Position numbers and translations under genes: made by a program
From: Burkholderiales bacterium
GTDB lineage: Bacteria > Pseudomonadota > Gammaproteobacteria > Burkholderiales > SG8-41
Direction of reading: 5' to 3'
Length of the DNA stretch: 63,252 nucleotides
Assembly: GCA_050250695.1 (NCBI GenBank)
Contig: JBFWOE010000005.1
Coordinates: 1 to 63,252 of the forward strand
Notes under the pieces: model-generated
What the model was told of the DNA's origin: nothing
The model's database searches: none
What the model saw: only the letters and a program-made list of their open reading frames with translations
Shown here: positions 2,768 to 61,370 of the stretch, in pieces
How positions within the stretch are numbered: position 1 is the stretch's first letter
Layout: each line of letters starts with the position of its first letter

Positions 2768-3328
2768 ATGAGCAAACCACTGGGCAATGAAGACCTGTCT
2801 GAAAAGCCGGGCGAACGCGTCATCGACAAACCTGAGCTGCCCGCCGGCGGCATCACCAACGAGAACGACGTTTTCACCGAAGTGATCGCCGGCGAGATGC
2901 ACCTCAAGCGCGGCCGCATGGGCAAGTTCGAGGTGTTCACCGACGAGGCGCCGCGCCTCGGCGGTACGGACAAATACCCGTCGCCGATGACCTACCTGGC
3001 GATGGCGGTAGGGTTCTGACTGCTGACCCAGGTTGCGCGGTACGCGCACATGATGAAAATGAAGGTCAGCGGGGCGAACTGCCGCGTGGTGTTCCGCAAG
3101 CATCTTGGCGGATCGGTGCTCAAGGGCACGGTGTTCAACCGCTGGGAAGGTGTCGATACCTATCTCAAGCTGAACAGCGACGAGCCGGCGGACAAGCTTG
3201 CACACCTGATCAAAAACGCCAAGGCAGGCTGTTTTGCCGAGGGCCTGATCGTGCAACCGGTTCCCTTGCACAGTCATGTCGAGGTCAACGGCCAGCCGTT
3301 TCATATCGACGGAGTGACTGGGAAGTAA
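2768..3328 (+). CDS. OsmC-like peroxiredoxin, predicted selenoprotein (Sec84 encoded by TGA 3017-3019), 186 aa
   Basis: ORFs 2768-3019 and 3050-3328 are in one frame, joined by TGA CTG CTG ACC CAG GTT GCG CGG TAC GCG CAC. OsmC motif DEAPRLGGTDKYPSPMTYLAMAVGF-U-LLTQ puts the TGA at the catalytic Cys site; second Cys in GCFAE; SECIS-like hairpin follows. Confidence 0.88.
3032..3049 (+). promoter_or_regulatory. candidate bacterial SECIS hairpin (OsmC-like gene)
   Basis: GT(T)GCGCG-GTA-CGCGCAC: stem starts +13 after the TGA, has a bulged U, loop G at +21; resembles the E. coli fdhF SECIS upper stem. Confidence 0.75.
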
Positions 3329-3409
3329 TCAATAAAACAGATGGTTGTGTAAATCCACCGGAGCGCGGCCTGTGCCGCGCTCCGGAATCCAATGCATGGA
3401 GACAGGTTG

Positions 3410-4288
3410 ATGAGCGCATTCGACATCCACGCCGGCGGCAAGGAAACGCATTTGCCGGACGATTTTCGCTGGCCCGGCGGCAAGCGCATTGCGGTGTTTT
3501 TCCGCGTGTCCTTCGAGTGGTGGTCCGACGGCAAATGGCCTGGCATCGGGCCGATGGGCAATCCGCTGAAGGCGGGCGTGCCCGATCTCAACGCCGTGGG
3601 CTGGGCCGAATACGGACACCGCCGCGGCATCCACCGCATCCTCGACGTGCTGGCGCGGCAGAACACCAGGGCCACCATCAACGTCAGTGGCATCATGGCC
3701 GAACGTTACCCGGAGACGGTGCGCAAAATCGCCGAAGCGGGACATGAAATCGTCGCGCATTCGTACACCATGGACATGATCCCGTGTTACCTGTCCGAGG
3801 AAGAAGAGCGCGCCAACATCGTGCACACCACGGAGCTGATCGAACGTGCCACCGGCATCCGGCCTCGCGGCTGGATCAGTCCGCGCAGCACGCCGGGCCT
3901 GCGTTCGCCGCGGCTGCTCGCCGAAGCCGGTTACGAATGGCACGGCGACACGCTGAACGACGACCTGCCGTACCGTGTCGATTTCGGCGACCGCTCGATC
4001 ATTGCCTTTCCCAACAACACCGAGGTCAACGACCTGCCGCTGTACATGCGCCACGGCAACGCGCCGAAGGTCATGCTCGAGATCTTCGAACACTGGCTCG
4101 ACTGTGCGCGTCACCGCGAGACCGGGCCGGTGCGCATGGATCCGGCGATCCATACCCATGTTTTCGGCCGTTCGCCGGGCCTGTTCGTCTACGAGGACAT
4201 CATCAAGGCCGCGAAGGCCGCAGATGACGTGTGGATCGGAACGCGCTCGGAGGCGGTCGATCATTGCAGGCGTACCCTCGGCGGCTGA
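3410..4288 (+). CDS. polysaccharide deacetylase family protein (PuuE/allantoinase-like)
   Basis: WPGGKRIAV, EYGHRRGIHRIL, GHEIVAHSY, PRGWISP, DDLPY motifs; start could be 3392. Confidence 0.88.
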   Translation: MSAFDIHAGGKETHLPDDFRWPGGKRIAVFFRVSFEWWSDGKWPGIGPMGNPLKAGVPDLNAVGWAEYGHRRGIHRILDVLARQNTRATINVSGIMAERYPETVRKIAEAGHEIVAHSYTMDMIPCYLSEEEERANIVHTTELIERATGIRPRGWISPRSTPGLRSPRLLAEAGYEWHGDTLNDDLPYRVDFGDRSIIAFPNNTEVNDLPLYMRHGNAPKVMLEIFEHWLDCARHRETGPVRMDPAIHTHVFGRSPGLFVYEDIIKAAKAADDVWIGTRSEAVDHCRRTLGG

Positions 4289-4400
4289 ATTGCGGCACAA
4301 TCGGGGTTCCCGCGGCGGGGCCGCGGGGCGCAGCGATCAAACCGCCGCGCGTGACAACGAAATCCGCAGCAGCGGATGCCTACTCAGCACAGGAGGAGTC

Positions 4401-5375
4401 ATGAACAACATATTTTCCCGGGTCGCAGGCTTGTTGCTGGCGGCATTTGTTGCCGCAGGCGCCGTGCAGCATGCCGTCGCTGCTTATCCCGAGCGGCCGA
4501 TCCGCCTGATCGTGCCGTTTGCACCCCAGGGCCCGAATGACGTGCTTGCCCGGCTGGTCGGGGCCAGGCTGACCGACACCTGGGGACAGCAGGTTGTCGT
4601 CGACAACCGTCCCGGCGCGGGCACCATCATTGGCACCGAACTGCTGGTGCGTTCCCAGCCCGACGGTTACACGCTGCTGATGATTTCTGCGAGCACGGCG
4701 GTCAATCCGACGCTGAAGAAAAAGCTGCCCTACGACACGCTGAAGGAGATTGTGCCGCTGGTGCAGCTGGCATCCTCCCCGACCGTGCTGGTGGTGCACC
4801 CTTCGGTGCAGGCGACGAGCATTTCCGAGCTGGTGGCGCTGGCAAAGGCCAAGCCGGGTGGCCTGACCTTTGCATCCGGCGGCACCGGCACCACCACGCA
4901 CCTGGCCGGCGAGCTGTTCGCGAACACGGCGGGCATCAAGTGGACGCACGTTCCGTACAAGGGTACGGGGCCGGCGAACATCGACCTGCTCGGCGGCCGC
5001 GTCTCAGGCATGTTCGGCACCTTCCTGCCGGTGATCCCGCACATCAAGTCCGGTCGCATGCGCGCGATCGGCGTGACCTCGCTGAAACGCAGCCCGGCGC
5101 TGCCTGACGTGCCTGCGGTGGCCGAGTCGCTCCCGGGCTTCGAAGCGGTGTCGTTCTTCGGCATCGCCACGCCGGCGGGCGTACCGAAAGCCGTGCGCGA
5201 CATGCTCAACCGCGAAATCGCACGCATCATCACCGAACCGGCGATGCGCGAGAACCTGCGCAAGCAGGGCACCGACGCCGTCGGCAACAGCGAGGCCGAG
5301 TTCACCGCATTTTTCCGCGGTGAGATGAAAAAATGGGCCAAAGTGATCAAGGATGCCGGCATCAAGGCAAATTGA
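4401..5375 (+). CDS. tripartite tricarboxylate transporter substrate-binding protein (Bug/TctC)
   Basis: Signal peptide; YPERPIRLIVPF, VVVDNRPGAG, HVPYKG; AGGAGG RBS. Confidence 0.93.
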   Translation: MNNIFSRVAGLLLAAFVAAGAVQHAVAAYPERPIRLIVPFAPQGPNDVLARLVGARLTDTWGQQVVVDNRPGAGTIIGTELLVRSQPDGYTLLMISASTAVNPTLKKKLPYDTLKEIVPLVQLASSPTVLVVHPSVQATSISELVALAKAKPGGLTFASGGTGTTTHLAGELFANTAGIKWTHVPYKGTGPANIDLLGGRVSGMFGTFLPVIPHIKSGRMRAIGVTSLKRSPALPDVPAVAESLPGFEAVSFFGIATPAGVPKAVRDMLNREIARIITEPAMRENLRKQGTDAVGNSEAEFTAFFRGEMKKWAKVIKDAGIKAN

Positions 5376-5394
5376 TCCGGGCCCGCCCCCGGAC

Positions 5395-5997
5395 CTAAGT
5401 AAAGTCGAGGCGCGTGTCGCGCAGCACTCCGAACAGGCGGATCGGATCGCGGCGCGGAATGGCCAGCGCCGGCAGTTCCTCGGCTTCCAGCACGATGCCG
5501 CCCGCGGCATATGCGTCCATCACCGGTTTTGACAGCACCATTTCCCCGGCGCGCGCGCGGTGCAGCAGCCGCTCGGCAACGCTGACGCTGTCGCCGACGA
5601 TCAGCGGCTGCACCGGCAGAGCCGGGTCGGCGACGCCGACCACCACATCGCCGGCATGCAGCCCGATCGATACTGCCGCGCGGATGCCGTAGTCCTGCTG
5701 CCACGATTCCTCGATGGCCGTGAATTCGCGCTGGATGTCCTGCGCCGCCGCGACCGCCTGCCGGGCCCGGTCCGCACCGGTGAAGGATGCCATCAGGGTG
5801 TCGTTCAGGGCACTGCGCACCACTCCGCCGTGCGTTTCGACCGCGGTTCGCACCAGCGCGAAAAATTCCGCTGCGCGCGCCAGCACCACGTCCGGCTCGA
5901 GCATTGCCGAAGTACGGGTGAAACCGCTGGTCTCGGCAAACAGGATGACTGCAGCCACGCGTTCCGGTTTCGGCGCTGTTGATTTGGTTGCCGCCAT
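5395..5997 (-). CDS. stand-alone class III adenylate/guanylate cyclase-like domain protein, catalytic residues degenerate
   Basis: ILFAETSGFT, DTLMASF, IGLHAGDVVVG, GDSVSVAERL. Confidence 0.8.
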   Translation of the reverse strand: MAATKSTAPKPERVAAVILFAETSGFTRTSAMLEPDVVLARAAEFFALVRTAVETHGGVVRSALNDTLMASFTGADRARQAVAAAQDIQREFTAIEESWQQDYGIRAAVSIGLHAGDVVVGVADPALPVQPLIVGDSVSVAERLLHRARAGEMVLSKPVMDAYAAGGIVLEAEELPALAIPRRDPIRLFGVLRDTRLDFT

Positions 5998-6207
5998 GCT
6001 GATGAACCTCCCTTGTATCCGCCGGCAGAATACATATTCTAGTGGGGCCTGCGCACACCTGCGCGGTAATTGTGCCTCGAATTCAATGATCTAGCGACTG
6101 TCGGGCAGCAGAGACAGGGTACTGCCAGAGGGCTGATTTCCGGCCATCGCTTTTCCGGGATCATGTCCCTATGATGCGCAATCAATTCATCATGCCGGGG
6201 AGATCAC

Positions 6208-6525
6208 ATGAGGCACTGCGCTGCAATACTGCTCGCCCTGCTGTTCGCCGCTGCCATTCAGGGTTGCGGCCGGGAATCCGAACCCGGGGTGCAGCCCAAA
6301 CCGGTGCCGGCCCAGAAACAATCGCAGCCCCGGCAGACACTGATCGACATCAACCGCGCCAGCGTTGCGGAATTGATGACGCTGAAGGGAATCGGCGAGG
6401 CGCGCGCCAGGGCCATCATCCGCGGCCGTCCCTACGCACGCAAAGATGACCTGGTGCACAAGGGCATCATTTCCGAGTCTGTCTACGGCCACATCAAGGA
6501 CCAGATCATCGCCCGGCAGAAGTGA
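6208..6525 (+). CDS. helix-hairpin-helix (ComEA-like) lipoprotein
   Basis: Signal peptide with IQGC lipobox; IDINRASVAELMTLKGIGEARARAII. Confidence 0.85.
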   Translation: MRHCAAILLALLFAAAIQGCGRESEPGVQPKPVPAQKQSQPRQTLIDINRASVAELMTLKGIGEARARAIIRGRPYARKDDLVHKGIISESVYGHIKDQIIARQK

Positions 6526-6570
6526 CCTGCATGGCGGCGCCAGTCGCCATGTTTTCAGCACCAGACCCCA

Positions 6571-7191: not shown

Positions 7192-7250
7192 GGGATGCCT
7201 TATAAAATATTAAATAAAAACAAATATTTACGATCAAACACCGGTGTCTG

Positions 7251-8312: not shown

Positions 8313-8454
8313 GGGGTGAGTTCAGCCGGGAAATCCGAAGTTTACCGAGCCCCGGTTTTTTGTCATCAAAAAACGGGGAGGCCCGACGTATACTTGGCCT
8401 GCAACAAAAGGTCGTTGGCCCGATTCGCAACGATCAATCATTCAGGGTTCGCAA

Positions 8455-10703
8455 TTGCCGGATAACAAGAACGAAGCAGTGGCAGGGGGCTGGCGGCACG
8501 GAAGCTGGTTGCGCAACAGCACTGCCGATGCCTGGGGCGGTTTTACAGCAGCCCTCATTGCCATTCCGCATGCAATGGGTCTCGGACTGCTGGCGTTCGC
8601 TGCGCTGGGACCGGCGTATGCACCGGTTGGTGTGGCGGCGGGGCTGCTGTCGGTAGTGGTCGGCAACCTGGTCGGCGGGCTGTTGCCTTCGGCCCGATGC
8701 CAGCTGATGGGTGCACGTACCTCTGCGACCGTCGTGTTTGCAGGCATTATTGCCGCCCTGGCCGTGCATCCGGCATTACAGGCGGGCAGCGGTCCGGATG
8801 TGCCCAAAGTGCTGACGCTGGCGTTCATGTCGCTGTTCCTCGCGGGCGTGATCCAGATGCTTTTCGGCCTGATGGGCCTGGGCAGAATCATCAAGTTTGT
8901 GCCCTACCCGGTGATTGCCGGGTTCATGAACGGGATCGCAATACTGATGCTGGTATCACAGGTAGCGCCCGCGCTTGGGCTCGAGGCCGGCAAGACCGTG
9001 CAGGAGATATTCACGGGCTCGCAGGCGATCCGGCCGGCGAGCCTGCTGGTGACCGGCATCGTGGTTGCCGCGATCTACGCAGTGCCGCGCTTCACGCAGA
9101 AATTTCCGGCGCTGCTCTGCGGGCTTCTGCTGGGGGTGATCGTACATCATCTGCTGGCGTGGCTCGCCCCGGCTTCAGTTGGGCCCCTGGTCGGAGCGCT
9201 GCCAACCGCCGGATTTGCGCCGCGTGAACTGGTGGCGATGATACATCTGGCGGGCACGGAGCCGCTGGTCATCTGGCTGGTTTATCTGCTGCCCGGTACC
9301 GCGTTGCTGGCAGCTGTGGTAGCGCTGGACGGGTTGCTGGCCGCTGTGTGACCGATCCCCTGACACGCAGTCGGCATGACAGCAATCGACTGCTCAAGGC
9401 GCAGGGTGCGGCCAATGCGCTCGCTGCGGCCTTCGGGGCCCTCCCGTCGGCCGCGAGTGCCCATACGCGGGTGGCTGCGTACCTCGTGGGTGCGCGCACG
9501 CCAGCGGTCGCGTTGTTCCATGCCCTGTTCATGCTGTCCGCAATGTTCGTGCTGGCTCCGCTGATCGCGGTGATTCCGGTGTCGGCGCTGGCGGGCATCA
9601 TCATCTACATCGCGCTGACCCTGGTCGACCGCTGGACGCGCGATCTTCTGCGCCGTCTGGGCAATGACGGCGGCGACAAGACGGAAATCCTGCTCAACAT
9701 CGCCGTGGTGTGCGGAGTCACGCTGTCGCTGCTGATGTTCAACATCATCGTTGCGTTCGGCATCGGCATTGCGGCGGCAGTCGTGCTGTTGCTGGTCCGG
9801 TTGAGCGGCTCCCCTGTGCGTCGCGCCCTCGACGGCTCGATCCGGTCATCGCTCAAGGTGCGCAGCCCGGAGGAACGCGCGATGCTGCTGCCGAAATCAA
9901 GGTTGATCCGCATTCTCGAACTGGAAGGCACGCTTTTTTTCGGTACGACCGACCGGTTGCAGACCCTCGTCGAGAGCCTGCCCGAGGAAACCCGTTTCGT
10001 GATCCTTGATTTCCGCATGGTGACCGACATCGATGCCAGCGGTGCGCGGTCGCTGGAAACGATGGGACATATGGCCGCGCGCCGCGGCATGCGTATTCTT
10101 TTCAGCCATGTCCGCGAGCAAGACGCGCATGGACGTTATCTCCGCGCGCTGGGAATTGATGCCGTGGTTGGCAGTGCCCACTGGTTTGCCGACCTGGACC
10201 GGGCGCTGGAGTGGGCCGAGGACACGTTGCTGGATCGAGAGCGGTTTGAGGATGCGCCGGAAATCGACCCCCGGGACATGGCGCTGTTTTCGGGACTCGA
10301 TGCCGCTGAAATGACCACTGTCTGCGCCCTGCTGGAACGGCGGGAGTTTGCGGACCGGGAAGTCATTTTCAACGAAGGCGACGAGGATGACAGCGTTTAT
10401 CTGATTGCGCGCGGCTCGGTGAGCATCAAGATCCAGTTGGGCGATGACACCCGGGCGCGGCGGCTCGCGACCTTAATGCCGGGCGTTTTTTTCGGTGAAA
10501 TGGCGATGATCGAAGGGCAGCGGCGTTCGGCTGATGCCTTCGCGAACGGAGAGCAGGTTGTGCTGTATGCACTGCCCGGACGGGCACTTTCAGACCTGAT
10601 GCAGCGCTACCCGCAGCTCGCGCTCAAAATCTACCGTAACCTCAGCCGCGAACTGGCTGCAAGGCTGCGCTCCACCAGTTCGGCTTTGAGGGCGCTGGAA
10701 TAA
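8455..10703 (+). pseudogene. SulP family anion transporter with STAS and cNMP-binding domains, split by a frameshift near 9348 (pseudogene or sequence error)
   Basis: 5' part has the SulP motif GRIIKFVPYPVIAGFMNG; 3' part has LEGTLFFG (STAS) and FFGEMA..RSADA (cNMP). Junction GCT GTG TGA CCG is restored to A-V-V-T-D by adding one G. Confidence 0.8.
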
Positions 10704-12960: not shown

Positions 12961-12963
12961 CCT

Positions 12964-18311: not shown

Positions 18312-19988
18312 ATGGAAAAGCTGGAAGTCGTGAGCCCGGCAGGACTGGCAGCGGTGGCCGCGTCGGGTGCCGCCCCCAGGCTTGCCGATCTCGATGGCAA
18401 AACGGTCGGCGAGTTCTGGAACGGCGTATTCAAGGGCGACATTACTTTTCCCGTCATCCGCAGGCTGCTGCAGTCGCGGTATCCGCATCTGCGGATCATT
18501 CCCTATACCGAATTCCCGCACGCCCATGGCAGCGACAATCCGGCGGAGCAGCGCGAGCGGGCCAGGCGCCTCGCCGCGCTGGCGAAGGAGAAAGGCTGCG
18601 ATGCGGTGATCTCCGGCAACGGGGCCTGAGGGACCTGCGCCCCGGCCGCGGCGCGGCCGGCATTCGAGGCTGAAAAAACCGGCGTCCCTGCAGTCGTGGT
18701 GACGACCACGGGCTTTTCCCCGCTGGCGCGTTTCACCGGCAAGGCGGGCGGGGTCGAGGATCTGCGCATCGCGGAATATCCGGGCCCCCTGGGCATACAC
18801 GACAGCGACCTGATTGCCCGCAATATCGAAGGCACGCTGATCCCGCAGATCGTTGAAGGCCTTACCCGCGCCGGCGCAGGCCCTGCCACGGGCGCGGCGG
18901 CGTGCAATGCGCAGGACAGCGTGTTTGCGGGGACCGCGGACGAAATCAACCGCCATTTCATCGACCGTGAGTGGAGTGACGGACTGCCCGTGGTTCCGCC
19001 GACGCCGGCGCGGATCGAACAGTGTCTCGCCCGCACCCGTCATGCGCCCGACGAAGTGATCGCCGTGCTGCCCCCCGCCAACCTTCAGGCCACGCCGCGC
19101 AACATCGCGGCCAACCTGGTGATGGCCGGCGGCGCGCCGGAGCACATGCCGCTGATGATTGCGGCGGTGCAGGCGCTGGGCGACGAACGCTGCAGCCTCA
19201 ACAACCTCGGCAGTTCATCCGGGATCATCCCCTACGTGCTGGCCAGCGGTCCGATCGTGCGGCAACTCGGCATCCAGCACGGTCCGCAGATGATCTCCCG
19301 GCCGCCGAATCCCGCCATCGGGCGCGCGGTCGGCCTGATCGTGAGGAACATCGCGGGTTTCCGTCCCGGCGCGAGCTACATGGGCACTTTCGGTTATCCG
19401 CTGGCATTTGCGTTTGCCGAGAGTCCCGATACCCCGTGGGAACCGTTCCACGTGAGCCAGGGCCTGGCCGCGGAAAGCAGCGCGGTGACCATCGGCGTCA
19501 CCAACAACTGGGGTTCATCGCCTGCGCCGTACGACACGCCCGACAAGGACGGCGCGCAGGTGGCGCTGGAGCTGCTGTGCCGAGAAGTCGTCAAGAAGAC
19601 GCGGCTGTTCAACTTCCCGGCAATCGGGCCGGATGCCGAACACGTGATGGTGACCATGCTGCTGTCGCCGCCGGTTGCGAAATCGCTGGCTGACGCCGGT
19701 TATTCGAAGGCCGACGTGCAGCGTTACATCCATGAACATGCGCGCATGCCGCTGCGCGATTTCGAATGGGTGCTCAAGTACACCGCCATCCTCCGCACGA
19801 CCCTGCAGGCAGAGGTCGAAAAGGGGATATATCCGCGGGAATTCCTCGGCGCGCCGGACGACATGGTCCGCGTGCTCTCGAGCCCGGACGTCGTGCACCT
19901 CGTCGTCTGCGGCGATCCCCACCGCAACCGGGTCATGGTCATGGAAGGCGGGCATACCCGGCCGACGACCCGGGTGGTGACGGGCTGA
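18312..19988 (+). CDS. UGSC-family protein, predicted selenoprotein (U-G-T-C; Sec106 encoded by TGA 18627-18629), 558 aa
   Basis: ORFs 18312-18629 and 18696-19988 are in one frame, joined by TGA GGG ACC TGC GCC CCG..., giving CDAVISGNGA-U-GTCAPAAARPAFEAEKTGVPAVVV. C-terminal domain has WSDGLPVVPPT; perfect hairpin after the TGA. Confidence 0.88.
18642..18660 (+). promoter_or_regulatory. candidate bacterial SECIS hairpin (UGSC-family gene)
   Basis: CCGGCCGC-GGC-GCGGCCGG: 8-bp perfect stem starting +13 after the TGA, loop G at +21. Confidence 0.72.
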
Positions 19989-26184: not shown

Positions 26185-27594
26185 TCAGGCGCGCGGTCCC
26201 GGAGCGACAGGTTTGTACTGATAACTGGCATCGCGCATGATGCGCTGGCGTGAAGCCAGTAACGCCTGCTGCTGCTGCGCGAGTCTGTCCCCGGGGTAGA
26301 GCAGTTTCCCGTTGCGCTTTACCGGCTCACCGGCAATCATCACCGTGTCGATGTCGGCTGATTCCGCATACATGACCACCGCGTGAACCGGATCGCCGCC
26401 GGGCAGCACCGGATAGACATTCATGCTGCGGGCATTGATCATCACCAGATCGGCCTGCTTGCCGGGGGTGATCGAGCCGATCTTCTTGTCCATGCCGAGC
26501 ATGGCTGCGCCGCCCATGGTGGCCCACCTCAGAGCGTCGCGCGTCTGTGTTGCATGCTCGCTGTCCACGGCGGGCCAGCGCCCCAGGGCATGCAATGAAC
26601 GGTTGTCGATTTCGCGCTGGTGCTGGAAGGCATGGCGCATGACCCACATCATCGAGCCGTTGAAATAGGGGTCGCAATCGGAGCCCAGAGACGGCATGTG
26701 ACCCAGTTTCAGCAGGCGGCCCAGCATCGCGACACGTTCGCTGTTGAACATTTCCGTGAGGTTGGTGGCAGAGATCGTGCAGCCGGCATCCAGAACCATC
26801 TTGAGTTCGTCATCCTCCAGGCAGTTGCCGTGCGCGATGTTGTGATCGGGTCCGAGCAGTCCTTCCTTTGCCAGCCGCCACATGCCGTCTTCGAGTTTGC
26901 GCTGGCCCTTACGCGCCCAGGTGTGCGCGCTGTTGATCAGGCCGTATTCCCTTGCCAGCCTGATGTCCTGGACGCAGACATCGTAGGTGGCGTAGTCCGG
27001 TCCCAGAGTTGCCATGGCCAGGGTGACCAGCCGGTCGTCCGTGGCGAATTTTCCGGTTCGAAGGCGGTGAATTTCTTCGCGTGGGAACGGAATTTCGTAG
27101 TAAGGGGTCTGGCCTTCAACGACCGGAGGTTTGACGGTGCCACGGGCAAAAACCGCGCGGATGCCGGATTCTTCCAGCCCTTCGATGGCGGCATCGGTCA
27201 TTTCCGAATCGCGCACGATATGACACCAGTCAAAGATGGTGGTGGCCCCGTGATTGATCTGGTTCAGCGCGCCGAGCAGGTTGGCGACGCGTACATCTTC
27301 CGGTTTGTAGTGCATCGCCATTTTGCGATGCATGTTGCCGTGATAATCCCGTTTGCTGACCCAGTTGGCGCCGATGCCGCGCAGCGGAAATTCCCAGGTG
27401 TGGATATGGGCATTGACCAGCCCCGGAATGACGATCATGTTGCCTGCGTCGATGGTTTCCGCAGCGTCGGCATGGATGTTTTTCGCGACTTCAAGGATTT
27501 TCGCGCCTTCGATCAGTATGTCTCCGCCTTCCAGGTCACCGATTGCCGGATCGAGACTGATCACGGTGGCGTTTTTGATCAGCTTGCGTTTCAT
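26185..27594 (-). CDS. amidohydrolase family (AtzA/MtaD-like deaminase)
   Basis: PGLVNAHIHTWE, SLGSD, ATMGGA..LG..IGSITPGKQADLV. Confidence 0.9.
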   Translation of the reverse strand: MKRKLIKNATVISLDPAIGDLEGGDILIEGAKILEVAKNIHADAAETIDAGNMIVIPGLVNAHIHTWEFPLRGIGANWVSKRDYHGNMHRKMAMHYKPEDVRVANLLGALNQINHGATTIFDWCHIVRDSEMTDAAIEGLEESGIRAVFARGTVKPPVVEGQTPYYEIPFPREEIHRLRTGKFATDDRLVTLAMATLGPDYATYDVCVQDIRLAREYGLINSAHTWARKGQRKLEDGMWRLAKEGLLGPDHNIAHGNCLEDDELKMVLDAGCTISATNLTEMFNSERVAMLGRLLKLGHMPSLGSDCDPYFNGSMMWVMRHAFQHQREIDNRSLHALGRWPAVDSEHATQTRDALRWATMGGAAMLGMDKKIGSITPGKQADLVMINARSMNVYPVLPGGDPVHAVVMYAESADIDTVMIAGEPVKRNGKLLYPGDRLAQQQQALLASRQRIMRDASYQYKPVAPGPRA

Positions 27595-27731
27595 GTCTAT
27601 CCCCCTGATGTTCAATACGTCCGCCTGACAGATGGCGCCGCGCTCGTTGCCGATATGGCACGATCACATTTTCCGAAAGCAAAATAAATGCTAAATTAAT
27701 AAAATCAGTTTTTCCCGCGAAGAAATAATAA

Positions 27732-28643
27732 ATGGATCGCCTGCTGGCCATGAATGTGTTCCGCAAAGTGGTGGAGCTGCGGAGTTTTTCCTCGGCCGCA
27801 GGCCAGCTGGGCATGTCGAATGCCTCGGTCAGCAAGCACCTGGTTGCGCTGGAGAACCACCTTGGGACCCAGCTGCTGATGAGGACGACACGACGGATGA
27901 GCCTGACCGAGCAGGGGCGCAGCTATTACGAGCAATGCAGCCGCATCCTCGATGAAATCGACGATGCTGAAGCCGGTGCAGGTGAGTACCGCGCAGCACC
28001 CCGCGGGCTGCTGAAGGTACGCGCGCCGTTGTCCCTGGGGGCCGCCCATCTGGGGAAAATCGTTTCCACATTTCTGGGGCAGTATCCGGAAGTCAGCGTG
28101 GACGTGACCCTGAATGACCGGTTTACCGATCCTGTCGAGGAGGGTTACGATGTCGCGCTGCGCATTGCATCGGCCCTGCCGGATTCCAGCCTGGTTGCAC
28201 GACCGATTGCCAGGATGAAGCGCATCCTGTGCGCCGCCCCCGGCTACCTGCGGCGATCCGGAGAGCCCGCCATCCCTGCGGATCTGAAGCGTCACAACTG
28301 CCTCATCTATACCCGGGGCGACACCCCCGATGAGTGGAGGTTTGACGGGCCGGAAGGCAAACGGGTCGCCCGGGTCCGGGGCAATTACCGCTGCAATAAC
28401 GGCATCGTTCTGCGCGAAGCCCTGCTTGAAGGATCGGGAATCGGATTGTTGCCGGCATTTCTCGTGGCCTCCGACATTGCCGAGGGATTGTTGAAGCCCC
28501 TGATGCAGGACCATGTCGCCGAGCCGCGTGTGCTCTATGCCGTGTTCCAGCACAGGCGGCATCCATTGCTCAAGGTCAAGGTATTCGTGGATTTTCTCGA
28601 GCAGCAACTTGCTGCCGATCCCGAACGCTGGCTGGGCAGCTGA
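27732..28643 (+). CDS. LysR family transcriptional regulator (CrgA-like)
   Basis: SFSSAAGQLG..VSKHLVALE..LG.QLL.RTTR; divergent from the amidohydrolase. Confidence 0.95.
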   Translation: MDRLLAMNVFRKVVELRSFSSAAGQLGMSNASVSKHLVALENHLGTQLLMRTTRRMSLTEQGRSYYEQCSRILDEIDDAEAGAGEYRAAPRGLLKVRAPLSLGAAHLGKIVSTFLGQYPEVSVDVTLNDRFTDPVEEGYDVALRIASALPDSSLVARPIARMKRILCAAPGYLRRSGEPAIPADLKRHNCLIYTRGDTPDEWRFDGPEGKRVARVRGNYRCNNGIVLREALLEGSGIGLLPAFLVASDIAEGLLKPLMQDHVAEPRVLYAVFQHRRHPLLKVKVFVDFLEQQLAADPERWLGS

Positions 28644-41662: not shown

Positions 41663-41876
41663 GGCAAATGATTTCCGGATGCTGCGGTTCCGCATCACGG
41701 ACAGCCGGCCCGGTCCGTAATCCGCATCCGCAATTGTTTTGAGACAACCTTTGCCGACACTATACAACCGATCAGGTGACCCGCAGCCAGCCGCATGCTT
41801 TTATTGAGTAGTATACGGGCACGTCATCGGCACGCCACAACAAGCGGGGCGCGTGTCAGCGCAATGAGGATACACA

Positions 41877-43088
41877 GTGAGCAGACTATCAGCCGTTTCG
41901 CGCGACCAGCTGCCTGCGCAGCAACGCCGTTTTTATGACGCGGTGCAGGCGATACGCCGCCGCCCGGTCAGTGGCCCGTTCATCGTGTTGATGAACAGCA
42001 GCCCCGACCTGGCCGCACGGTTCGCCCATCTCGGCCACTACTTCCATTCACGCGGCCAGGCGGACGAATCCATCCTGCCGCTGCGGGTCCGCGCGTTTGT
42101 TTCTCTGGCCGGGTCGCGCGCGCTGGATGCGCCTTACGAATGGGCTGCGTGGATCAACTGGGCGCTGGACGCCGGCGTGGCCGCGGAAACCGCGGATGCC
42201 ATCCGCGAAGGCAGGGTGCCCCCGCAGCTGACCGCGGAAGAAAAACTGATCATGGCGTTGTGCACCCGGCTGGTGTCGGGCGATCACCGGGTCGATCCGG
42301 CCACTTTCAGCGCCGCGCTGGAGCATTTTGGCACCCGGGGTCTCGTCGAACTGGTGGTGACGCTCGGTTATTTCGCGATGATTGCGCTGCCGCTGAACGC
42401 CTTCGAGATGGAAATGTCGACCGAACAGAAAAGCCTGCGCAAGCCCTACACCCCGTTGCGGGTGGAGGGCAGGCCCTGCGCCGATGCAGCGGATCCGCAA
42501 CGCAGATTGCCGCCGCTGTCCGCGGGCGTCGGCATGCTGCCGCGCGTGCCGCTGCTGTCCGGGCATGACGACCTGGCGCCGGCGGACCAGCATTTCTTCG
42601 ATCGCATCGTGCTCAGGCGGGGCAGGATTCCCGCACTGTTCCAGGTACTCCTGCACACGCCCGATGTCGCAGAACGCGTGGCCAGCATCGGCGCATTCTT
42701 CCTGTATGAAACGCTGCTGCCGCCTGAGGTCAGCGCACTGGTCTGGCTGCTCGGTGCGCGCGAACTTGACTGCGCCTACACCTGGCGCGCAGCTGCCGCC
42801 GCGGCGCGGGCCGCCGGCGTCGAGCCGGCGCTGGTCGAGTGCCTCGAACACGGCCGCCCGCTGACCGCCGGCGGAGCGGATGCCGCAATGCTCGCCGGTT
42901 TCTGCCGGCAGCTGCTGCGCGGCAACCACCACGTCGACGACCAAACCCACGACGCCGTCGTCGCGCGCTTCGGCGTTCCCGCCGCGGTGCAGATCGCGGC
43001 GACGCTGGGCTACATCGTCATGATGAGCCTGCTCGCCAATGCCTTCGAACTTGCGCCGGAGGAGGACGCTGCCGGTCCGGCACTGTAG
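41877..43088 (+). CDS. tandem CMD family protein
   Basis: Two repeats: GPF..SPD..YEW..ELVVTLGYF..LNAFE and LF..HTPD..YTW..TLGYI..ANAFE. Confidence 0.85.
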   Translation: MSRLSAVSRDQLPAQQRRFYDAVQAIRRRPVSGPFIVLMNSSPDLAARFAHLGHYFHSRGQADESILPLRVRAFVSLAGSRALDAPYEWAAWINWALDAGVAAETADAIREGRVPPQLTAEEKLIMALCTRLVSGDHRVDPATFSAALEHFGTRGLVELVVTLGYFAMIALPLNAFEMEMSTEQKSLRKPYTPLRVEGRPCADAADPQRRLPPLSAGVGMLPRVPLLSGHDDLAPADQHFFDRIVLRRGRIPALFQVLLHTPDVAERVASIGAFFLYETLLPPEVSALVWLLGARELDCAYTWRAAAAAARAAGVEPALVECLEHGRPLTAGGADAAMLAGFCRQLLRGNHHVDDQTHDAVVARFGVPAAVQIAATLGYIVMMSLLANAFELAPEEDAAGPAL

Positions 43089-50209: not shown

Positions 50210-50242
50210 TGCTGTTGCAGGATTACTGCAACCCTGATTGTT

Positions 50243-50405
50243 TCAGCCCGGCACGCCGTATTCTTTCCGGCAGACCTCCGCCAGCGTCGCCACGCCTTGG
50301 TTGATTTCCTCGTGGCTGAGGTTGGCGAAGCACAGCTGCAGGCGGACGAGCCGATATGAATGACGTCGCCGCGTTTGCTGATCGCGTGCGGGTGTTCGCC
50401 AGGTT
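50243..50405 (-). pseudogene. deleted remnant of a PLP-dependent aminotransferase, paralogous to 52804-54018
   Basis: 50347-50243 translates VRLQLCFANLSHEEINQGVATLAEVCRKEYGVPG* (intact gene: RLRLCFANLSHEEISQGVATLAEVCRKEYGVSG*); abuts HAISKRGDVIHIGS (intact: HAMSDRSDVIYIGS). Confidence 0.85.
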
Positions 50406-50589
50406 TCATTGCGTCTCTAAAATAATGCTGACCCCGACCCTTGGCGTTCACCTGCGGTTTCGGCGCTAGACGTAACTGATTGATTGTACAAGTTGATTCG
50501 TGGGGGAACCTCAGTGCATGGTCCTTTCAATTCAGTTTTTTGTGGCTGACCCTGGCGAGTATCGCGATGCCGGTGCCCTGTCCGCCGAT

Positions 50590-51063
50590 CTAATCGGCAT
50601 GTTCCGCCGAGGTGTCTGCTGCCAGCTTTAAGCGAAATTCACGCAGTCCCTGCACGGCGGACTGCAATTGTGCGGCATTCAATCCTGTGGCAAGTCGTGC
50701 CGCCTCCATTTCGATGCGTTGATCCAGCCGGGTGAGGGCAGTGCGACCCTTGCGCGTGAGCTGCATCAACATGGATTTAGCATGCGCCGGATTTTCGATG
50801 AATTCGATCATGCCTTCCGCTGCCATCTGATCGGCCAGCTTCTGCATATGCTGACGTGATACGGGCCGTGCCCGCGCAGCTTGAGGCACCGTTTGGGGGC
50901 CTTCGTGCCCAAGACTGCGCAGCAGACCCCAGTTGCCCGCACCAGCGGCAGTGACTGCCCCGATTCGCTTGCCCGCAGCGCGCAACAGATGAAATGTCTT
51001 GATGGTTTCCGACATCAGCGCCAGTACCAGCTGCACGCTGTCGTCCCCGGATTTTCCGGCCAT
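50590..51063 (-). CDS. MarR family transcriptional regulator
   Basis: GPQTVPQAARARPVSRQHMQ...NPAHAKS..LT..G winged helix. Confidence 0.88.
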   Translation of the reverse strand: MAGKSGDDSVQLVLALMSETIKTFHLLRAAGKRIGAVTAAGAGNWGLLRSLGHEGPQTVPQAARARPVSRQHMQKLADQMAAEGMIEFIENPAHAKSMLMQLTRKGRTALTRLDQRIEMEAARLATGLNAAQLQSAVQGLREFRLKLAADTSAEHAD

Positions 51064-51120
51064 TGCATCCCTTTCGTTTCAGTGGTTTTCCCGGGCCCGC
51101 CCCGGAACTATTGTGGCACT

Positions 51121-51171
51121 TGACAACTTTGTTGTCATTAACAATAATCCTGTTTGACAACTTGGTTGTCA
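51121..51171. promoter_or_regulatory. two TGACAAC-N3-GTTGTCA palindromes (probable MarR operators)
   Basis: Perfect arms at 51121-51137 and 51155-51171, each overlapping a TTGACA. Confidence 0.8.
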
Positions 51172-51206
51172 TATTGATCTGCACCATCATTGTGGAGAGA
51201 CAAGCC

Positions 51207-51656
51207 ATGCACGCATCAATCAAGAAATCGCTGTCGGCAGCGCTGATCTCATGCGCGGCCCTGATTCTCAAAGCAGCCCCGCTGCAGGCTGCAAGCGTTC
51301 CTGGATTCGCCCTGGACCAGGTGGCCGCCGAACTCAGTCTGTCCGCGGAACAGCGCGAAAGGGTGGAGCATTTTCTGACGCGATGGATGCAGCAGCGAAG
51401 ACACTCAACCCATTCTGGCCTGCGCGAAGAATTCATGCACCAATTCACCAGCGAGCGCTTGGACATCGAAGCGCTGGAGCAGAAAACCCGGGAGAGCCTG
51501 CGCGAATGGGAGGCGGCCCTGCCAGCGTTGCTTGCTGAACTTGCCGTACTTCATCAAGCGCTTACTGCCGGGCAGCGGGCGCAGCTCGCGCAGTGGATGA
51601 AAGAGCGGGGCGGGCAACAACGGCGGCGCGCTGGCTATTGGCGCGGTGAGCGATGA
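51207..51656 (+). CDS. Spy/CpxP-like periplasmic protein
   Basis: Signal peptide; LSLSAEQ and LTAGQRAQL (LTXXQ-like). Confidence 0.7.
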   Translation: MHASIKKSLSAALISCAALILKAAPLQAASVPGFALDQVAAELSLSAEQRERVEHFLTRWMQQRRHSTHSGLREEFMHQFTSERLDIEALEQKTRESLREWEAALPALLAELAVLHQALTAGQRAQLAQWMKERGGQQRRRAGYWRGER

Positions 51657-52267
51657 GCTACGTGGTGTCCCAGTTCGGCAATCCGCGCGGCCTCATGGGC
51701 TGGCTGGTCGGATGGGCCATGGCCCACAAGAACCGCGAGCGCAATGTCTGGACGTTGCAAGCGCTGGATGTCGGCCCTGCAGATCATGTGCTGGAAATCG
51801 GGTGCGGGCCGGGTGTGGCGCTGGCAGCGGTGGCAGAAACTGTGAAGTCGGGATACGCAGTGGGCATCGACCGCTCGGTCCTGATGGTGCGTCAGGCCAG
51901 TCGCCGTAACCAGTCAGCCATCCATGCCGGCAGGGCGCACATCATGTCGAGCAACAGCGAGCACTTGCCATTCCCTGCTGGCTATTTTGATAAGGCGTTT
52001 GCCAGCAATGTATCCATGTTCTGGAGTGATCCGCAGCAGCATCTTGCCGAAATCAGACGCGTATTGAAGCCCGGAGGATTGCTGGTGCTGAGCCTGCAGC
52101 CGCGCTGGGCGAAGAGGGAATCCGAAGTCCAGGCCATCGGCCATGCGCTGAAGAACGAAGTTAAACGCGCCGGGTTCGGCGATCTGCATCTCGATTTCCA
52201 TTCGATGGCACCGGTGACAGCGCTGCGCGTACGTGGTCGCAAGGCGTTGTCCGGCAACGGTGTGTGA
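51653..52267 (+). CDS. class I SAM-dependent methyltransferase
   Basis: VLEIGCGPG, GIDRS, LPF...FD, RVLKPGG. Confidence 0.92.
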   Translation: MSYVVSQFGNPRGLMGWLVGWAMAHKNRERNVWTLQALDVGPADHVLEIGCGPGVALAAVAETVKSGYAVGIDRSVLMVRQASRRNQSAIHAGRAHIMSSNSEHLPFPAGYFDKAFASNVSMFWSDPQQHLAEIRRVLKPGGLLVLSLQPRWAKRESEVQAIGHALKNEVKRAGFGDLHLDFHSMAPVTALRVRGRKALSGNGV

Positions 52268-52310
52268 TCAGTGTCAGTCACTTAATCTACTTAAAGCAAA
52301 GGAGATCGGG

Positions 52311-52772
52311 ATGTCTAACCTCACGAAAGCAAGAACCGGGGCCGTGCTGTTCATGCTCTGGGGGCTGCTGCATGTCGTTGGCGGTGCCGTAATTCTCGCG
52401 GCACTGACGGATGGCGCCGAAAGTGCCTATGCCTTGTATCAGAACGGTATCGGGGTTTATCCGGCAATCGCCGGTTTCGTGCTGGGATACTTGGCCTACT
52501 GCCTGATCTGCATGGGCATAGTGGTAGCAGCCGTCGGGGCGATGGCGAACTGGCGAAATTCCGCGAACGGACTGGCCCTCAATACGATCATAGTCGGGTT
52601 GACGGAAATCGGACTCGTCGGATTTCTGATTGTCCCGGGATATGTGTCCTGGACAGAGGCGGTGCCTGGTATGCTGCTGTTCATGGCTGCCGTAACATTG
52701 GGCGGCATTGCCTGCAGGAACTGTCATCCTGTCGCTTACAGTGGCGACGACTTGCGGGCAAGTCCTGACTGA
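52311..52772 (+). CDS. hypothetical membrane protein (about 4 TM)
   Basis: Hydrophobic segments; WGLLH; AAGGAG RBS. Confidence 0.7.
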   Translation: MSNLTKARTGAVLFMLWGLLHVVGGAVILAALTDGAESAYALYQNGIGVYPAIAGFVLGYLAYCLICMGIVVAAVGAMANWRNSANGLALNTIIVGLTEIGLVGFLIVPGYVSWTEAVPGMLLFMAAVTLGGIACRNCHPVAYSGDDLRASPD

Positions 52773-52803
52773 AATGCCCGGCAAGAAACCCCGGTAGCTG
52801 CTT

Positions 52804-55777: not shown

Positions 55778-55830
55778 CGGCAATGCCGGCATCCCGCTGT
55801 GGGATAGACGCTTCAAGTTGTCTGAAAATC

Positions 55831-57155: not shown

Positions 57156-57258
57156 GTTGACCCCATTAATCCATTGTCGCTGAATGCAGGGGCGGGTCAT
57201 TTTTTGCCCACAATAGTACACTAGGCCATTCGCGGTCCCGTTGAAATGGAAATCGCCC

Positions 57259-57867: not shown

Positions 57868-57894
57868 TGCACTGCAGACAGGGGTGAAATCGCA

Positions 57895-58605
57895 ATGAAT
57901 GCCGACAGGGTCCGGACCGGAACAGGTACGATGGTTGCGCTCAACGCGCGCCCGCAGGAAGTCGAAATCGACATCCAGCGCACGGCCATCGTGGTGGTGG
58001 ACATGCAGAATGCCTACGCCAGCAAGGGCGGCATGCTTGACCTGGGCACCGGCATCGATGAAGCCCGTATCGGCCCGGTCATCGCGGCCAACCAGCGCCT
58101 GCTGCCCGCGGCCCGGGCCGCGGGCGTCAAGGTGATCTACCTGCAGTTCGGCTACAAGCCCGACCTCAGCGACGCCGGCGGTCCGCAATCCCCCAACATC
58201 CGCAAGCAGATGGCGTTCCGCATGATCCGCGAGCGCCCGGCCGACCGCGACAAGCTGATCGTCCAGGGCACCTGGGGCTGGGAGATCATCGATGCCCTCA
58301 AGCCCGAGCCCGGCGACCTGGTGGTGCAGAAATCCCGCTACAGCGGCTTTGCCGGCACCACGCTGGAGAACCAGCTCAACGGCCTCGACATCCGCCACCT
58401 GCTGTTCACCGGCGTGGCGACCAACGTGTGCGTGGAGAGCACGGCACGCGAAGCCTACTTCCGGGAGTTCTGGCCCATCCTCATCGAGGATGCGATGGAC
58501 CACACCGGCCCTGACTTCGTGCGCCAGGCCACGCTCTACAACTTCGAGTCGAAGATGGGCTGGGTCACAAAGACGGACGACGTGCTGCGCATCCTGAAGG
58601 GTTGA
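57895..58605 (+). CDS. isochorismatase/cysteine hydrolase (RutB-like)
   Basis: VVDMQNAYASKGG, KSRYSGF, GVATNVCVEST. Confidence 0.9.
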   Translation: MNADRVRTGTGTMVALNARPQEVEIDIQRTAIVVVDMQNAYASKGGMLDLGTGIDEARIGPVIAANQRLLPAARAAGVKVIYLQFGYKPDLSDAGGPQSPNIRKQMAFRMIRERPADRDKLIVQGTWGWEIIDALKPEPGDLVVQKSRYSGFAGTTLENQLNGLDIRHLLFTGVATNVCVESTAREAYFREFWPILIEDAMDHTGPDFVRQATLYNFESKMGWVTKTDDVLRILKG

Positions 58606-58712
58606 GTAACACCCGCATCCCGGCGCGGTCGCGACACGCAGCCACGCCGGCGGGGATGATGCCGGGTCATGCCCGCCCGATCTGACGGCTGCACGCCACC
58701 GAGGCACACCGC

Positions 58713-59264
58713 ATGAGCTGGAAACTGCCCGAGAACTCCCTGTTCGCCATCCTGATGCGCAAGGACTGGTGGGTGAGCGCGCTGTGTGCGGTTGCCACCT
58801 ACGCGCTGGTGCAGAACTTCATGCCCTGGGGTTATGCGCTGTTCGCCACCACGCCCTTCACCATCATCACACTGATGGTGATCTGGAAACGGATCCGTGT
58901 GCCCAGCGGCGCGCGGCTGGAGCGCATGCTGGAAAAAATCCGCACCCTGTCGTGGGAGGAATTCGCATCGAAGCTGGAGGCCGCGTTCAGGGCCGAGGGT
59001 TTCAACGTGAAGCAGATCAAGGGCGCGGCGGATTTCGAGCTGGAGAACCTGGGTTACGTGACGCTGGTCAGTGCGCGGCGCTGGAAAGTGGTGCGCACGG
59101 GTGTCGAGCCGATCAAAGAACTGGTGGAGTACGGCGAAAAGCGCGACGCGCGGCAATGCCGCTACGTGGTGGCGGGCGAACTGACCGGGCAGGCGCGGAC
59201 GTACGCGAAGGAGCAGGGCGTGATGCTGGTGGAGGGCGCTGAATTGGTGAAACTGATTCGTTAA
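58713..59264 (+). CDS. membrane-anchored Mrr-like restriction endonuclease domain protein
   Basis: NSLFAILMR..WW, two TM segments, LSWEEF..AF..EGF, ADF, ARRWK. Confidence 0.75.
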   Translation: MSWKLPENSLFAILMRKDWWVSALCAVATYALVQNFMPWGYALFATTPFTIITLMVIWKRIRVPSGARLERMLEKIRTLSWEEFASKLEAAFRAEGFNVKQIKGAADFELENLGYVTLVSARRWKVVRTGVEPIKELVEYGEKRDARQCRYVVAGELTGQARTYAKEQGVMLVEGAELVKLIR

Positions 59265-59349
59265 TGTTAATTTATCCAGCAGCAAATCTGCGTGGGCAGC
59301 CTGTCGGCATTGCCGAGTCGACCAATTGAAAATGGTTTTCTGAATCCCG

Positions 59350-60294
59350 ATGAACACGGCACATAAAATCGGCAGGGGCCATTTCAATGTGGCTCGTGAA
59401 CAGGCCGATATTCCGTTTTCAACATTCTGCGAGCGATATTTCGATACGGAAACACCGGTTGTCATCGAAAAAGCCGGGGCAGACTGGCCAGCCGGGAAAG
59501 TATGGACCGAAAAATACGTGCACGACCAGCTGTCAAGGGATCCCTCGGCCAAATCGGCTTCGCTGTGGTACTGGATTGAAAAAGGAACGCTGGAAAAAGA
59601 CTACGAAACACCCCGGGTGGTGAGCGGGTTTGCCGGGCGCCCGGATATTTTTCCGCGCAACGAACTGATGCGGATATGGATACACAGGAGGGGCAACGTA
59701 TCCAGCTGGCACTATGACGCCAACATGGTGAATGTCCTGACCGTCCAGGTCATCGGGCAAAAGGAATGGTTTTTGGTGTCTCCGGAAACCCCGCTGGACT
59801 GCTATCCGTTCACGAATTTTGCGATTCTCGACGGCAACGATGAAAAGATATTCCGCCGGAGCATTTATACGAAGGTAATCCTCAACGCAGGCGACCTGCT
59901 GTATGTTCCCCCGCTCTGGTTCCACAAGGTTTATTCCCTCGGCGAGGAAAACATCAACCTCGACTGGATCTTCACAAAAAGGGAAACCGCGGTGTGCACC
60001 CGGACCCTGACCCGGGAACTGGAAAGATATTCGATCGAGGACTATTTTTCCCGGCACCGTTTCCGGTTTGTGCGCAATGCCTTCCAATTCATCAATTCAA
60101 GAATCCCGGGATATCTGCGCTGGAAGTGGCGTTATCCGGAAATGATCCGGACGCCGCTCACCCCCCGGCGCCTTGGCGGAGTCCGGCGGACTCTCAGTGA
60201 AATGGCCGTGCTGGGGAAGGTGTTGTGGCACGCCCAAAAAATTCGCCCCTATATCCGCAACCTGCGGCCGCCCAGGAGGCTGGAGGGCAGATAA
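59350..60294 (+). CDS. JmjC/cupin-like 2-oxoglutarate Fe(II) oxygenase
   Basis: PVVI...WPA, WHYD, QVIGQKEWFL, LNAGDLLYVPPLWFHKV. Confidence 0.85.
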   Translation: MNTAHKIGRGHFNVAREQADIPFSTFCERYFDTETPVVIEKAGADWPAGKVWTEKYVHDQLSRDPSAKSASLWYWIEKGTLEKDYETPRVVSGFAGRPDIFPRNELMRIWIHRRGNVSSWHYDANMVNVLTVQVIGQKEWFLVSPETPLDCYPFTNFAILDGNDEKIFRRSIYTKVILNAGDLLYVPPLWFHKVYSLGEENINLDWIFTKRETAVCTRTLTRELERYSIEDYFSRHRFRFVRNAFQFINSRIPGYLRWKWRYPEMIRTPLTPRRLGGVRRTLSEMAVLGKVLWHAQKIRPYIRNLRPPRRLEGR

Positions 60295-60776
60295 CAGTTT
60301 CGCGGCATGGCCCGCCGGCACGGACAGGCACGCAGCGGATGTTTTCGACGTGCAGGCCGGATTCACATGATCCAGAGAAAAGCCGCGACACCGAGTGATA
60401 TGAAAAACACGCAAAGGTGGAGCAAGGTCAGCAACCGGTAGCGCCGCGCCGGTCGCCTTGTCGTTGACCCAGAACGGCGCAACGCGCTTCCGGGCATCCG
60501 CCCGCGGTACAGCGTCATTGCCAGCTTCAGCTTTGGCGGCACCCTTGAATTTGCAGTAGGCAATGCCGCAAGACGGACATTGCCACGCCGGCGCCGTATC
60601 AGCGGCAGTGCGTGCGTGGCCGCACTTGGGGCGGACCGTGGGTGATGCAGCGTTCATCGGCGCCGGAATATGACCATAAAAAAGGGGATAACCAGGAGTT
60701 CGTTCCAGGTGGATGGAGAACTGGAGAACGTGGTCAGTCCCCTGTGGCGACGCGTTCCCGCGGCCGGTGCGCGTGA

Positions 60777-61370
60777 TCAGCGTTTGTGCTTGCCGACCGA
60801 CCAGCCGTGTTGCGTGATGTGCTTTTCGGCTTTCTCGACGGGATGATCTTCCAGCGGGGTCGCCATGGTGTCGTTCCAGCGGTTCATGAAACCGAAGTAC
60901 GATATCAGCGCGGTAATCTCGACGATCTGGCCTTCGTTCCAGTGTTTCTTCATTTGCTCAAACAGTTCGTCGCTGACGTCATTGGGTTGCGACGCCGCGG
61001 CAATGGAAAACTCCAGAGCGACACGTTCCGCATCGCTGAACAGCGGGCTGGTGCGGAATTCCCATACTTTTTCGAGTTTTTCCGCCGGTATGCCTTGCTG
61101 GAGAGACCCCCCAGCGTTGTGCGCCATTCAGTAATGGCAGCCGTGCGTGCGCGCCACCACATAGGCGAGCAGGCGTTTCAGGCCCAGCGACACTTCACCT
61201 TCGGCATCGAACACGGCGGCGGACAGGCCGCGCAACGCCATCACCAGCTTGGGCTTGCGCTGCATGATGAGCTGGCTGTTGGCAACATAATGATTGGCAG
61301 CGAGCTGCTTTTCGAACATCTCTTTCAGTTCCGGTGCTGCGCCGATGGGCAGCGGTTCAAGTCGGGCCAT
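60777..61370 (-). CDS. AhpD/CMD family peroxidase-like protein, predicted selenoprotein (C78-H-Y-U81; TGA 61130-61128), 197 aa
   Basis: ORFs 61370-61128 and 61127-60777 abut in frame: TGC CAT TAC TGA ATG GCG CAC = C-H-Y-U-M-A-H, matching the AhpD CxxCxxH motif; hairpin follows. Confidence 0.9.
61097..61115 (-). promoter_or_regulatory. candidate bacterial SECIS hairpin (AhpD-like gene)
   Basis: GCTGGGGG-GTC-TCTCCAGC: stem with two G-U pairs starting +13 after the TGA, loop G at +21. Confidence 0.72.

Follow-up and report, generated by a model that had tools for sequence, protein, structure and literature searches.

Probable selenoprotein genes of the OsmC-like, UGSC and AhpD-like families on a contig of an uncultured Burkholderiales bacterium

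The 63,252-nt stretch of DNA analysed here (the window; 63% G+C) is contig C5 of a 3.42-Mb metagenome-assembled genome (MAG) that comprises 274 contigs and is rated 98.65% complete. The nearest relatives of its SelA protein come from MAGs labelled Burkholderiales bacterium or Betaproteobacteria bacterium, with identities of 93, 85 and 83%, supporting an uncultured Burkholderiales/Betaproteobacteria MAG lineage as the host. The window carries three genes, of the OsmC-like, UGSC and AhpD/CMD families, that each contain a single in-frame TGA codon, at positions 3017, 18627 and 61130, where an earlier note on this DNA had placed them and had read them as selenocysteine (Sec) codons. An open reading frame (ORF) call with translation table 11 divides the three genes into six ORFs (2768-3019 and 3050-3328; 18312-18629 and 18696-19988; 61370-61128 and 61127-60777), and fragments of such genes are present in public protein sets (P0020, P0007, P0008, P0011 and P0013), so that the note's expectation of a six-fragment annotation is borne out. 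Codon usage shows the frame to be open and coding-like on both sides of the recoded TGAs.

The first gene (2768-3328, plus strand) encodes an OsmC-related protein of 186 residues, in which the TGA at 3017-3019 corresponds to Sec residue 84 in the motif U-L-L-T (context GF-U-LLT), with a second Cys at residue 154. The product scores 165.5 bits against the NCBIfam model NF041052, 'OsmC-related (seleno)protein' (cut-off 95), and 39.9 bits against Pfam OsmC; its motif fits the UxxT of the OsmC-like selenoproteins listed in the examined passages of PMC2398784 and PMC13188914, and no difference from that family was found. A hairpin resembling a selenocysteine insertion sequence (SECIS) lies at 3034-3048 on the plus strand and consists of an uninterrupted 6-bp stem that pairs +15 to +20 with +24 to +29 around a GUA loop at +21, where +1 is the first base after the TGA. 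The segment from +12 to +39, which holds the hairpin and its 3′ flank, is identical in 22/22 OsmC orthologue sequences, and synonymous variation is seen in the Leu codon before +12 and in the Lys codons from +40 on. Of 19 homologues, seven are full-length or nearly so, and four of these (P0001, P0002, P0003 and P0005) have Cys in the U column. Fragmentary homologues break at the TGA: the last residues of P0013 are GF, and P0007, P0008 and P0011 begin just past the codon.

The second gene (18312-19988, plus strand) encodes 558 residues, with the TGA at 18627-18629 as Sec residue 106 in the motif U-G-T-C (context GNGA-U-GTC); in the product a UGSC domain is followed, at the C-terminal end, by a conserved domain some 360 residues long. 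Pfam UGSC (PF24696) matches residues 5-185 with 91.1 bits (cut-off 25), and the remaining ~370 residues matched no Pfam or NCBIfam family. Its SECIS-like hairpin (18642-18660, plus strand) is formed by a stem of 8 bp from +13 and a GGC loop at +21; in a UGSC-fusion paralogue group at about 50% identity both bases of a G-C pair have changed to give U-A, so that the stem is preserved. Among the best 120 of 872 homologues, the three that are full-length (P0022, P0027 and P0028) all read GNGA-C-GTC, and the other 117, of 378-456 residues, start past the TGA, which is the product expected when a gene caller meets the Sec form.

The third gene (60777-61370, minus strand) encodes an AhpD/CMD-like protein of 197 residues, with the TGA at 61130-61128 as Sec residue 81 in the motif C-H-Y-U (context GC-HY-U-MAH). 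It scores 34.1 bits against Pfam CMD (PF02627; cut-off 23) and shares the fold family of the C-x-x-U selenoproteins related to AhpD, Sec standing for the second Cys of C-x-x-C-x-x-H. With these matches all three family labels of the earlier note hold. The U column of the best 120 homologues contains Cys in 117, Ser in two and Thr in one, within the motif C-x-Y-C-M-A-H. The hairpin at 61097-61115 (minus strand) has a stem from +13 and a GUC loop at +21 with a G.U closing pair, or else a 7-bp stem with the loop GGUCU from +20. Across 23 distinct AhpD sequences, 95.1% of the cells of the 8-bp stem pair, as against 87.1% in shuffles (0/500 reach the observed value), and sliding the partners lowers pairing to 58.7% or less. 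Two of the eight stem pairs change on both sides (C-G in 12 sequences and U-A in 10; C-G in 13 and G-U/G-C in seven). The description of the three hairpins given earlier thus stands for the G-opening loop at +21 in every gene and for the stem start at +13 in the UGSC and AhpD genes, whereas the OsmC stem begins at +15.

Were the TGAs nonsense mutations, marks of pseudogenes or assembly errors, the six fragments would be the true products; the table-11 call, the fragment entries in public protein sets and the fragmentation of the MAG are in keeping with this. The conservation of the codon is not. A genus set of 40 genomes, counting the window's own, has matches to the OsmC-like gene in 20 genomes, and 20/20 matches retain TGA at this codon, as do two orthologues elsewhere in the order. 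In an order sample of 151 genomes the gene has a match in five, three of them orthologues with TGA and two, at 32% identity, without it; with 5/151 order and 20/40 genus genomes, the OsmC-like selenoprotein family is rare. One TGA is present in 147 of the 150 UGSC matches listed, and in 45 of the 58 AhpD matches listed (53-99% identity), the 13 that lack it, at 44-49% identity, being Cys paralogues. Pfam UGSC copies number 3-12 per genome in 24/24 other genus genomes, occur in 2/16 genomes of the order that belong to other families, where one genome has 19, and were found in none of 14 control genomes.

Contigs from the runs of three other studies, which span sites 3017 and/or 18627, bear on the same question and also carry the TGA of the UGSC gene. 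X3 record 9 covers 2500-4903 with four other letters, all listed away from 3017; of the contigs that span 18627, X7 record 23 has a single difference (18165) and X8 record 31 has none. Reads with TGC, TGT or TGG had been named as evidence that would count against Sec, and among the differences listed in these contigs none lies at 3017 or 18627. The TGAs at these two sites are not assembly errors. Given also the coding-like frame on either side of each codon and the complete Sec machinery described below, loss of function or error as the source of the three TGAs is very improbable.

All four genes of that machinery, selA, selB, selC and selD, are present in the genome, as the Sec reading had called for. 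The selB (C98:4966-6846; 421.5 bits, cut-off 242) and selA (C98:6876-8219; 574.7 bits, cut-off 268) genes lie side by side, and tRNA-Sec (selC; C98:1493-1587) is on the same contig and strand, scoring 75.9 bits in Rfam against a threshold of 47 and being called by ARAGORN as tRNA-SeC with anticodon TCA. A selD of the Sec type is split across two contig ends and itself has one in-frame TGA, in GGG-U-GCK. The window yielded zero tRNAs with ARAGORN. These genes also bear on a reading of the TGAs as Trp, Gly or Cys through a suppressor tRNA or an altered code. The OsmC homologue P0006, with Trp in the U column, would agree with such a reading, although a TGG codon, or a call in the style of code 4, could account for that residue. 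Against this reading stand the presence of selA, selB and a Sec-type tRNA with anticodon TCA, the placement of the recoded sites at Cys positions of redox motifs beside SECIS-like hairpins, and the scarcity of recoding: when codon usage was scored on both sides of each in-frame TGA with open codons on either side, only 263 of 37,202 sites were coding-like on both, and most of these are adjacent genes. Insertion of an amino acid other than Sec accordingly has only a very slight chance of being correct.

The three genes are best explained as genuine bacterial selenoprotein genes, with a probability of about 0.93. At each in-frame UGA, the hairpin some 20 nt further downstream, whose apical loop opens with G, would hold SelB carrying Sec-tRNA(Sec), and Sec would be inserted in place of termination to give full-length products of 186, 558 and 197 residues. 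Sec would then sit in a redox motif in each protein, U-x-x-T in the OsmC-like, U-G-T-C in the UGSC and C-x-x-U in the AhpD-like product, and the three would belong to a selenoproteome of about 21 genes of thiol-oxidoreductase-like families that is common to this uncultured Burkholderiales genus. Both Sec insertion itself and a peroxidase or reductase chemistry of the products are predicted from sequence.

Several observations weigh against this explanation. A search of the window with Rfam at gathering thresholds gave 0 matches and no SECIS family. Two of the products fall below curated NCBIfam equivalog cut-offs: the UGSC fusion reaches 59.8 bits against NF041046 (cut-off 125), whereas stand-alone UGSC paralogues score 118.8-151.4 bits, three of five above 125, and the AhpD-like protein reaches 84.4 bits against NF053654, 'YciW-related (seleno)protein' (cut-off 310), and 49.3 bits against TIGR01926, 'peroxidase-related enzyme' (cut-off 81.8), so that it is a member of the wider family and not of those equivalogs. 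The U column is occupied by Ser (P0004, P0009) or Trp (P0006) in three of the seven full-length OsmC homologues; the claim that the TGA replaces a family Cys stands for AhpD (117/120) and for the full-length UGSC homologues (3/3), and for OsmC in four cases of seven. Covariation in the stems comes from related sequences in two or three clades, within coding sequence, and thus represents few independent events. The comparison with independent contigs rests on the differences listed, and for X3 record 16, which spans 18627 with two differences, the position is listed for one of them only. No RNA dataset is listed as carrying the UGSC stretch.

Beyond the window, about 21 selenoprotein genes are identified in the genome: eight UGSC, five AhpD-like, two glutaredoxin-DinB (Grx-DinB), and one each of the OsmC, PrdB-like, ResA/TlpA-like, Prx-like, DUF411 and SelD kinds. 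Eighteen inspected candidates were searched against NCBIfam, 15 having a family match across the Sec position, and the count adds to these the three window genes, the DUF411 gene, a second Grx-DinB gene and selD. A family match covers the Sec position in 20 of the ~21, the DUF411 gene being probable; the genome is fragmented, so that the total is a lower bound for these filters. No match to formate dehydrogenase alpha (TIGR01553) above the cut-off was found in the genome, and none with an internal stop. According to the part of PMC5029168 examined, a genome with at least six selenoprotein genes counts as 'selenoprotein-rich', and the suggestion of an unusually selenoprotein-rich betaproteobacterium is supported by the retention of the TGAs across genus orthologues and their presence in contigs of independent studies. 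Whether this selenoproteome is 'hidden', as was also proposed, depends on the annotation: the word is apt where Sec is not modelled, and less so where the '(seleno)protein' models that NCBI has for these families are applied.

The DUF411 gene (C148:5012-5452, minus strand) carries T-U-GCC and a 12-bp hairpin with the loop GAU at +22, and its Pfam match leaves the Sec position uncovered. At the place of T-U-GCC, proteins of this family have a C-x-C-C metal-binding motif. DUF411 is not among the families named in the passages of the selenoprotein lists examined (PMC2398784, PMC13188914). One of the two Grx-DinB fusion genes (C98:8414-9181, minus strand; G-U-SSC, Sec residue 15) came from a hairpin screen and lies next to selA: selA-selB follow on its strand after some 195 nt, and tRNA-Sec comes later on this contig; its paralogue (C129:7504-8271) directly precedes a UGSC fusion gene. 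On contig C14, an AhpD-like gene (C-HY-U) and the PrdB/GrdB-like gene (TPV-U-PNC; C14:26883-28127) stand back to back within 26270-28127, with a Cys-type AhpD paralogue (C14:21094-21681) 5 kb upstream of the pair, an arrangement that recurs in several genus genomes. At the start of contig C79 (C79:2-307), an MFS-transporter-like frame has an in-frame TGA (C79:53) followed by a hairpin of -32 kcal/mol, its only family match being weak (E 2.7e-4); the TGA may be a Sec codon or an error, or the frame may be a pseudogene.

Other in-frame TGAs were set aside. In the genome, C133:5082, C10:41366, C254:183 and C238:292 (PhaC then PhaB), and the candidates on C257, C44, C226, C99 and C164 are adjacent genes, C127:1075 has a Rid family match only past the TGA, and those on C2, C10 (16795), C12, C13, C192, C213 and C221 are antisense shadow frames. 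Within the window, the TGAs at 28641, 30199 and 49931, which have coding sequence on both sides, likewise separate adjacent genes, and a possible fourth gene with 'CFYU' at 41796, ahead of a Cys-type double-CMD gene (41943-43088) that starts 147 nt further downstream, is taken as chance.

The textbook case of a bacterial SECIS is that of Escherichia coli fdhF. As in bacterial SECIS elements generally, the hairpins of the window lie just 3′ of the UGA inside coding sequence, and a G opens a short loop at 20 nt from the UGA. A further proposal had been that the fixed register, with the stem from +13 and the loop G at +21, is a lineage-specific rule by which the rest of the selenoproteome could be mined. 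This idea was tested with explicit hairpin rules. The strict +13/+21 rule describes two of the three window sites and, genome-wide, 64 of 94,054 TGA trinucleotides, so that the coincidence is not due to chance; +21 is common to the three unrelated window families and is the most frequent loop start among 20 Sec sites. The starts are spread, however, from +17 to +27: +17 (one site), +19 (one), +20 (five), +21 (seven), +22 (two), +24 (one), +25 (two, of which one has an alternative fold with its loop at +18) and +27 (one). The strict rule recovers three of the 20 Sec sites among its 64 hits, a rule requiring a stem of at least 6 bp and a loop from +19 to +23 recovers 14 among 3,417, and a loose rule 19 among 25,186.

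All the sites, the three window hairpins with their GUA, GGC and GUC loops included, fall within the general bacterial SECIS model, given in the examined part of PMC13188914 as a UGA-loop distance of 16-37 nt, a loop of 3-9 nt, a stem of 4-16 bp, G in the first two loop bases and an energy of at most -7.5 kcal/mol. Folding energies are -14.8 to -21.3 kcal/mol for 55 nt. The shared register, lying inside a published model, reflects the usual SelB-ribosome spacing and not a trait of the lineage, and members of one family have a common hairpin because it lies within conserved coding sequence. With no Rfam family at the gathering threshold and nothing lineage-specific found, a fixed register distinctive of this lineage and sufficient for mining its selenoproteome is highly unlikely. 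The register alone mines nothing; coding and homology filters are needed.

A second pattern concerns the UGSC family. A tblastn search with the C-terminal part of the UGSC fusion found that 8/8 UGSC genes of the genome are fused to or beside a copy of the ~360-residue domain: fused on C5, C144 and C129 (the last cut by the contig end), with the domain immediately downstream on C166 (UGSC gene 169-705, neighbour 768-1763), C168 and C219 and immediately upstream on C135 and C64. Coordinate comparison adds at least 11 further adjacent UGSC/domain pairs in other genus genomes, so that the module has eight occurrences in this genome and many across the genus. That the two parts are fused in certain copies and merely adjacent in the rest is a classic sign that they may act together. 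The examined part of PMC2398784 describes the fusion of a UGSC protein with a conserved domain, 'Unknown_1', in a family commoner in non-marine samples, and 'Unknown_1' is presumably the C-terminal domain seen here. An AlphaFold2 model of the Cys homologue P0022 has a mean predicted local distance difference test (pLDDT) of 71.5 and a predicted template modelling score (pTM) of 0.68. Foldseek returned 0 matches of this model to the PDB at E <= 0.001, and a wide VIA search covered residues 23-189 only, with many unrelated three-layer alpha/beta domains (best Z 10.4) and the C-terminal domain barely included. The protein atlas, searched with P0022 residues 195-563, gave unnamed 'hypothetical' clusters of about 370 amino acids only.

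The Sec region of the window's UGSC fusion matches PrdB and GrdH weakly in NCBIfam (E 6e-4 and 2e-3), which suggests that its chemistry may be reductase-like. It shares a U-x-x-C motif with GrdB/PrdB, the selenoprotein B of glycine and proline reductase; however, the scores are far under the cut-offs and the surroundings of the gene showed no partner genes of the Grd or Prd type, so that the likeness serves as a lead on mechanism only. It is tentatively suggested, at a likelihood well short of even, that the UGSC domain and the ~360-residue domain form an obligate two-part selenoenzyme, on one chain or from neighbouring genes, perhaps a family of substrate-specific reductases that work as GrdB/PrdB do and are central to a selenoproteome without formate dehydrogenase in uncultured Burkholderiales of water, sludge and landfill.

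The genes around the three selenoprotein genes, encoding a thioesterase, a polysaccharide deacetylase, TctC receptors, an M32 peptidase, DUF3500 and an M48 peptidase, show no functional link to them. Genes for TctC, the receptor of tripartite tricarboxylate transporters, lie near the OsmC-like gene (4401-5375) and next to the AhpD-like gene (61698-62666); the TctC family is very numerous in Burkholderiales. Contigs of all four runs compared have an extra C behind position 9347, where ORFs 8575-9351 and 9348-10703 abut, and a one-base difference or error at this point may alter the relation of the two. No ORF above the coding-score filter was found in 50210-52803 or in 59265-60776. The latter region contains an open frame of some 250 amino acids, has an Mrr-type restriction endonuclease gene (58713-59264) as its neighbour and may be foreign DNA.

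The OsmC-like (UxxT), UGSC-containing (UxxC) and AhpD-like (CxxU) proteins all appear among the prokaryotic selenoprotein families of the examined passages of PMC2398784 and PMC13188914, and NCBI has '(seleno)protein' models for them, confirming that Sec forms of each had been reported. The three genes thus add members to known kinds. The UGSC fusion resembles the published UGSC selenoproteins (PF24696, NF041046), described for the first time, from ocean metagenomes, in the part of PMC2398784 examined, in its UGSC domain, its Sec within U-x-x-C and its fusion to a conserved domain, but differs from them in its U-G-T-C motif in place of U-G-S-C and in its 558-residue fused form. The less expected part is the host, not the families. 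The richest selenoproteomes are placed in anaerobes (Thermodesulfobacteriota, Clostridia and Synergistota) by the examined passages of PMC13188914 and PMC5029168, and those on BSepDB give 57,630 selenoproteins in 16,621 species, about 3.5 per species. The literature searched held no paper naming selenoprotein-rich Burkholderiales, which a groundwater-MAG survey cited in PMC13188914 (ref. 66) may cover.

Against reviews centred on anaerobes, the window and its genome document the use of Sec in a Burkholderiales genus with about 21 selenoprotein genes, among which no Sec formate dehydrogenase was found. Ordinary gene callers split or shorten such genes, the 117 truncated calls among the best 120 public homologues of the UGSC fusion being a case in point. 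The constant pairing of UGSC with the uncharacterised domain could help to reveal what UGSC proteins do, theirs being among the commonest selenoprotein families that are still uncharacterised.

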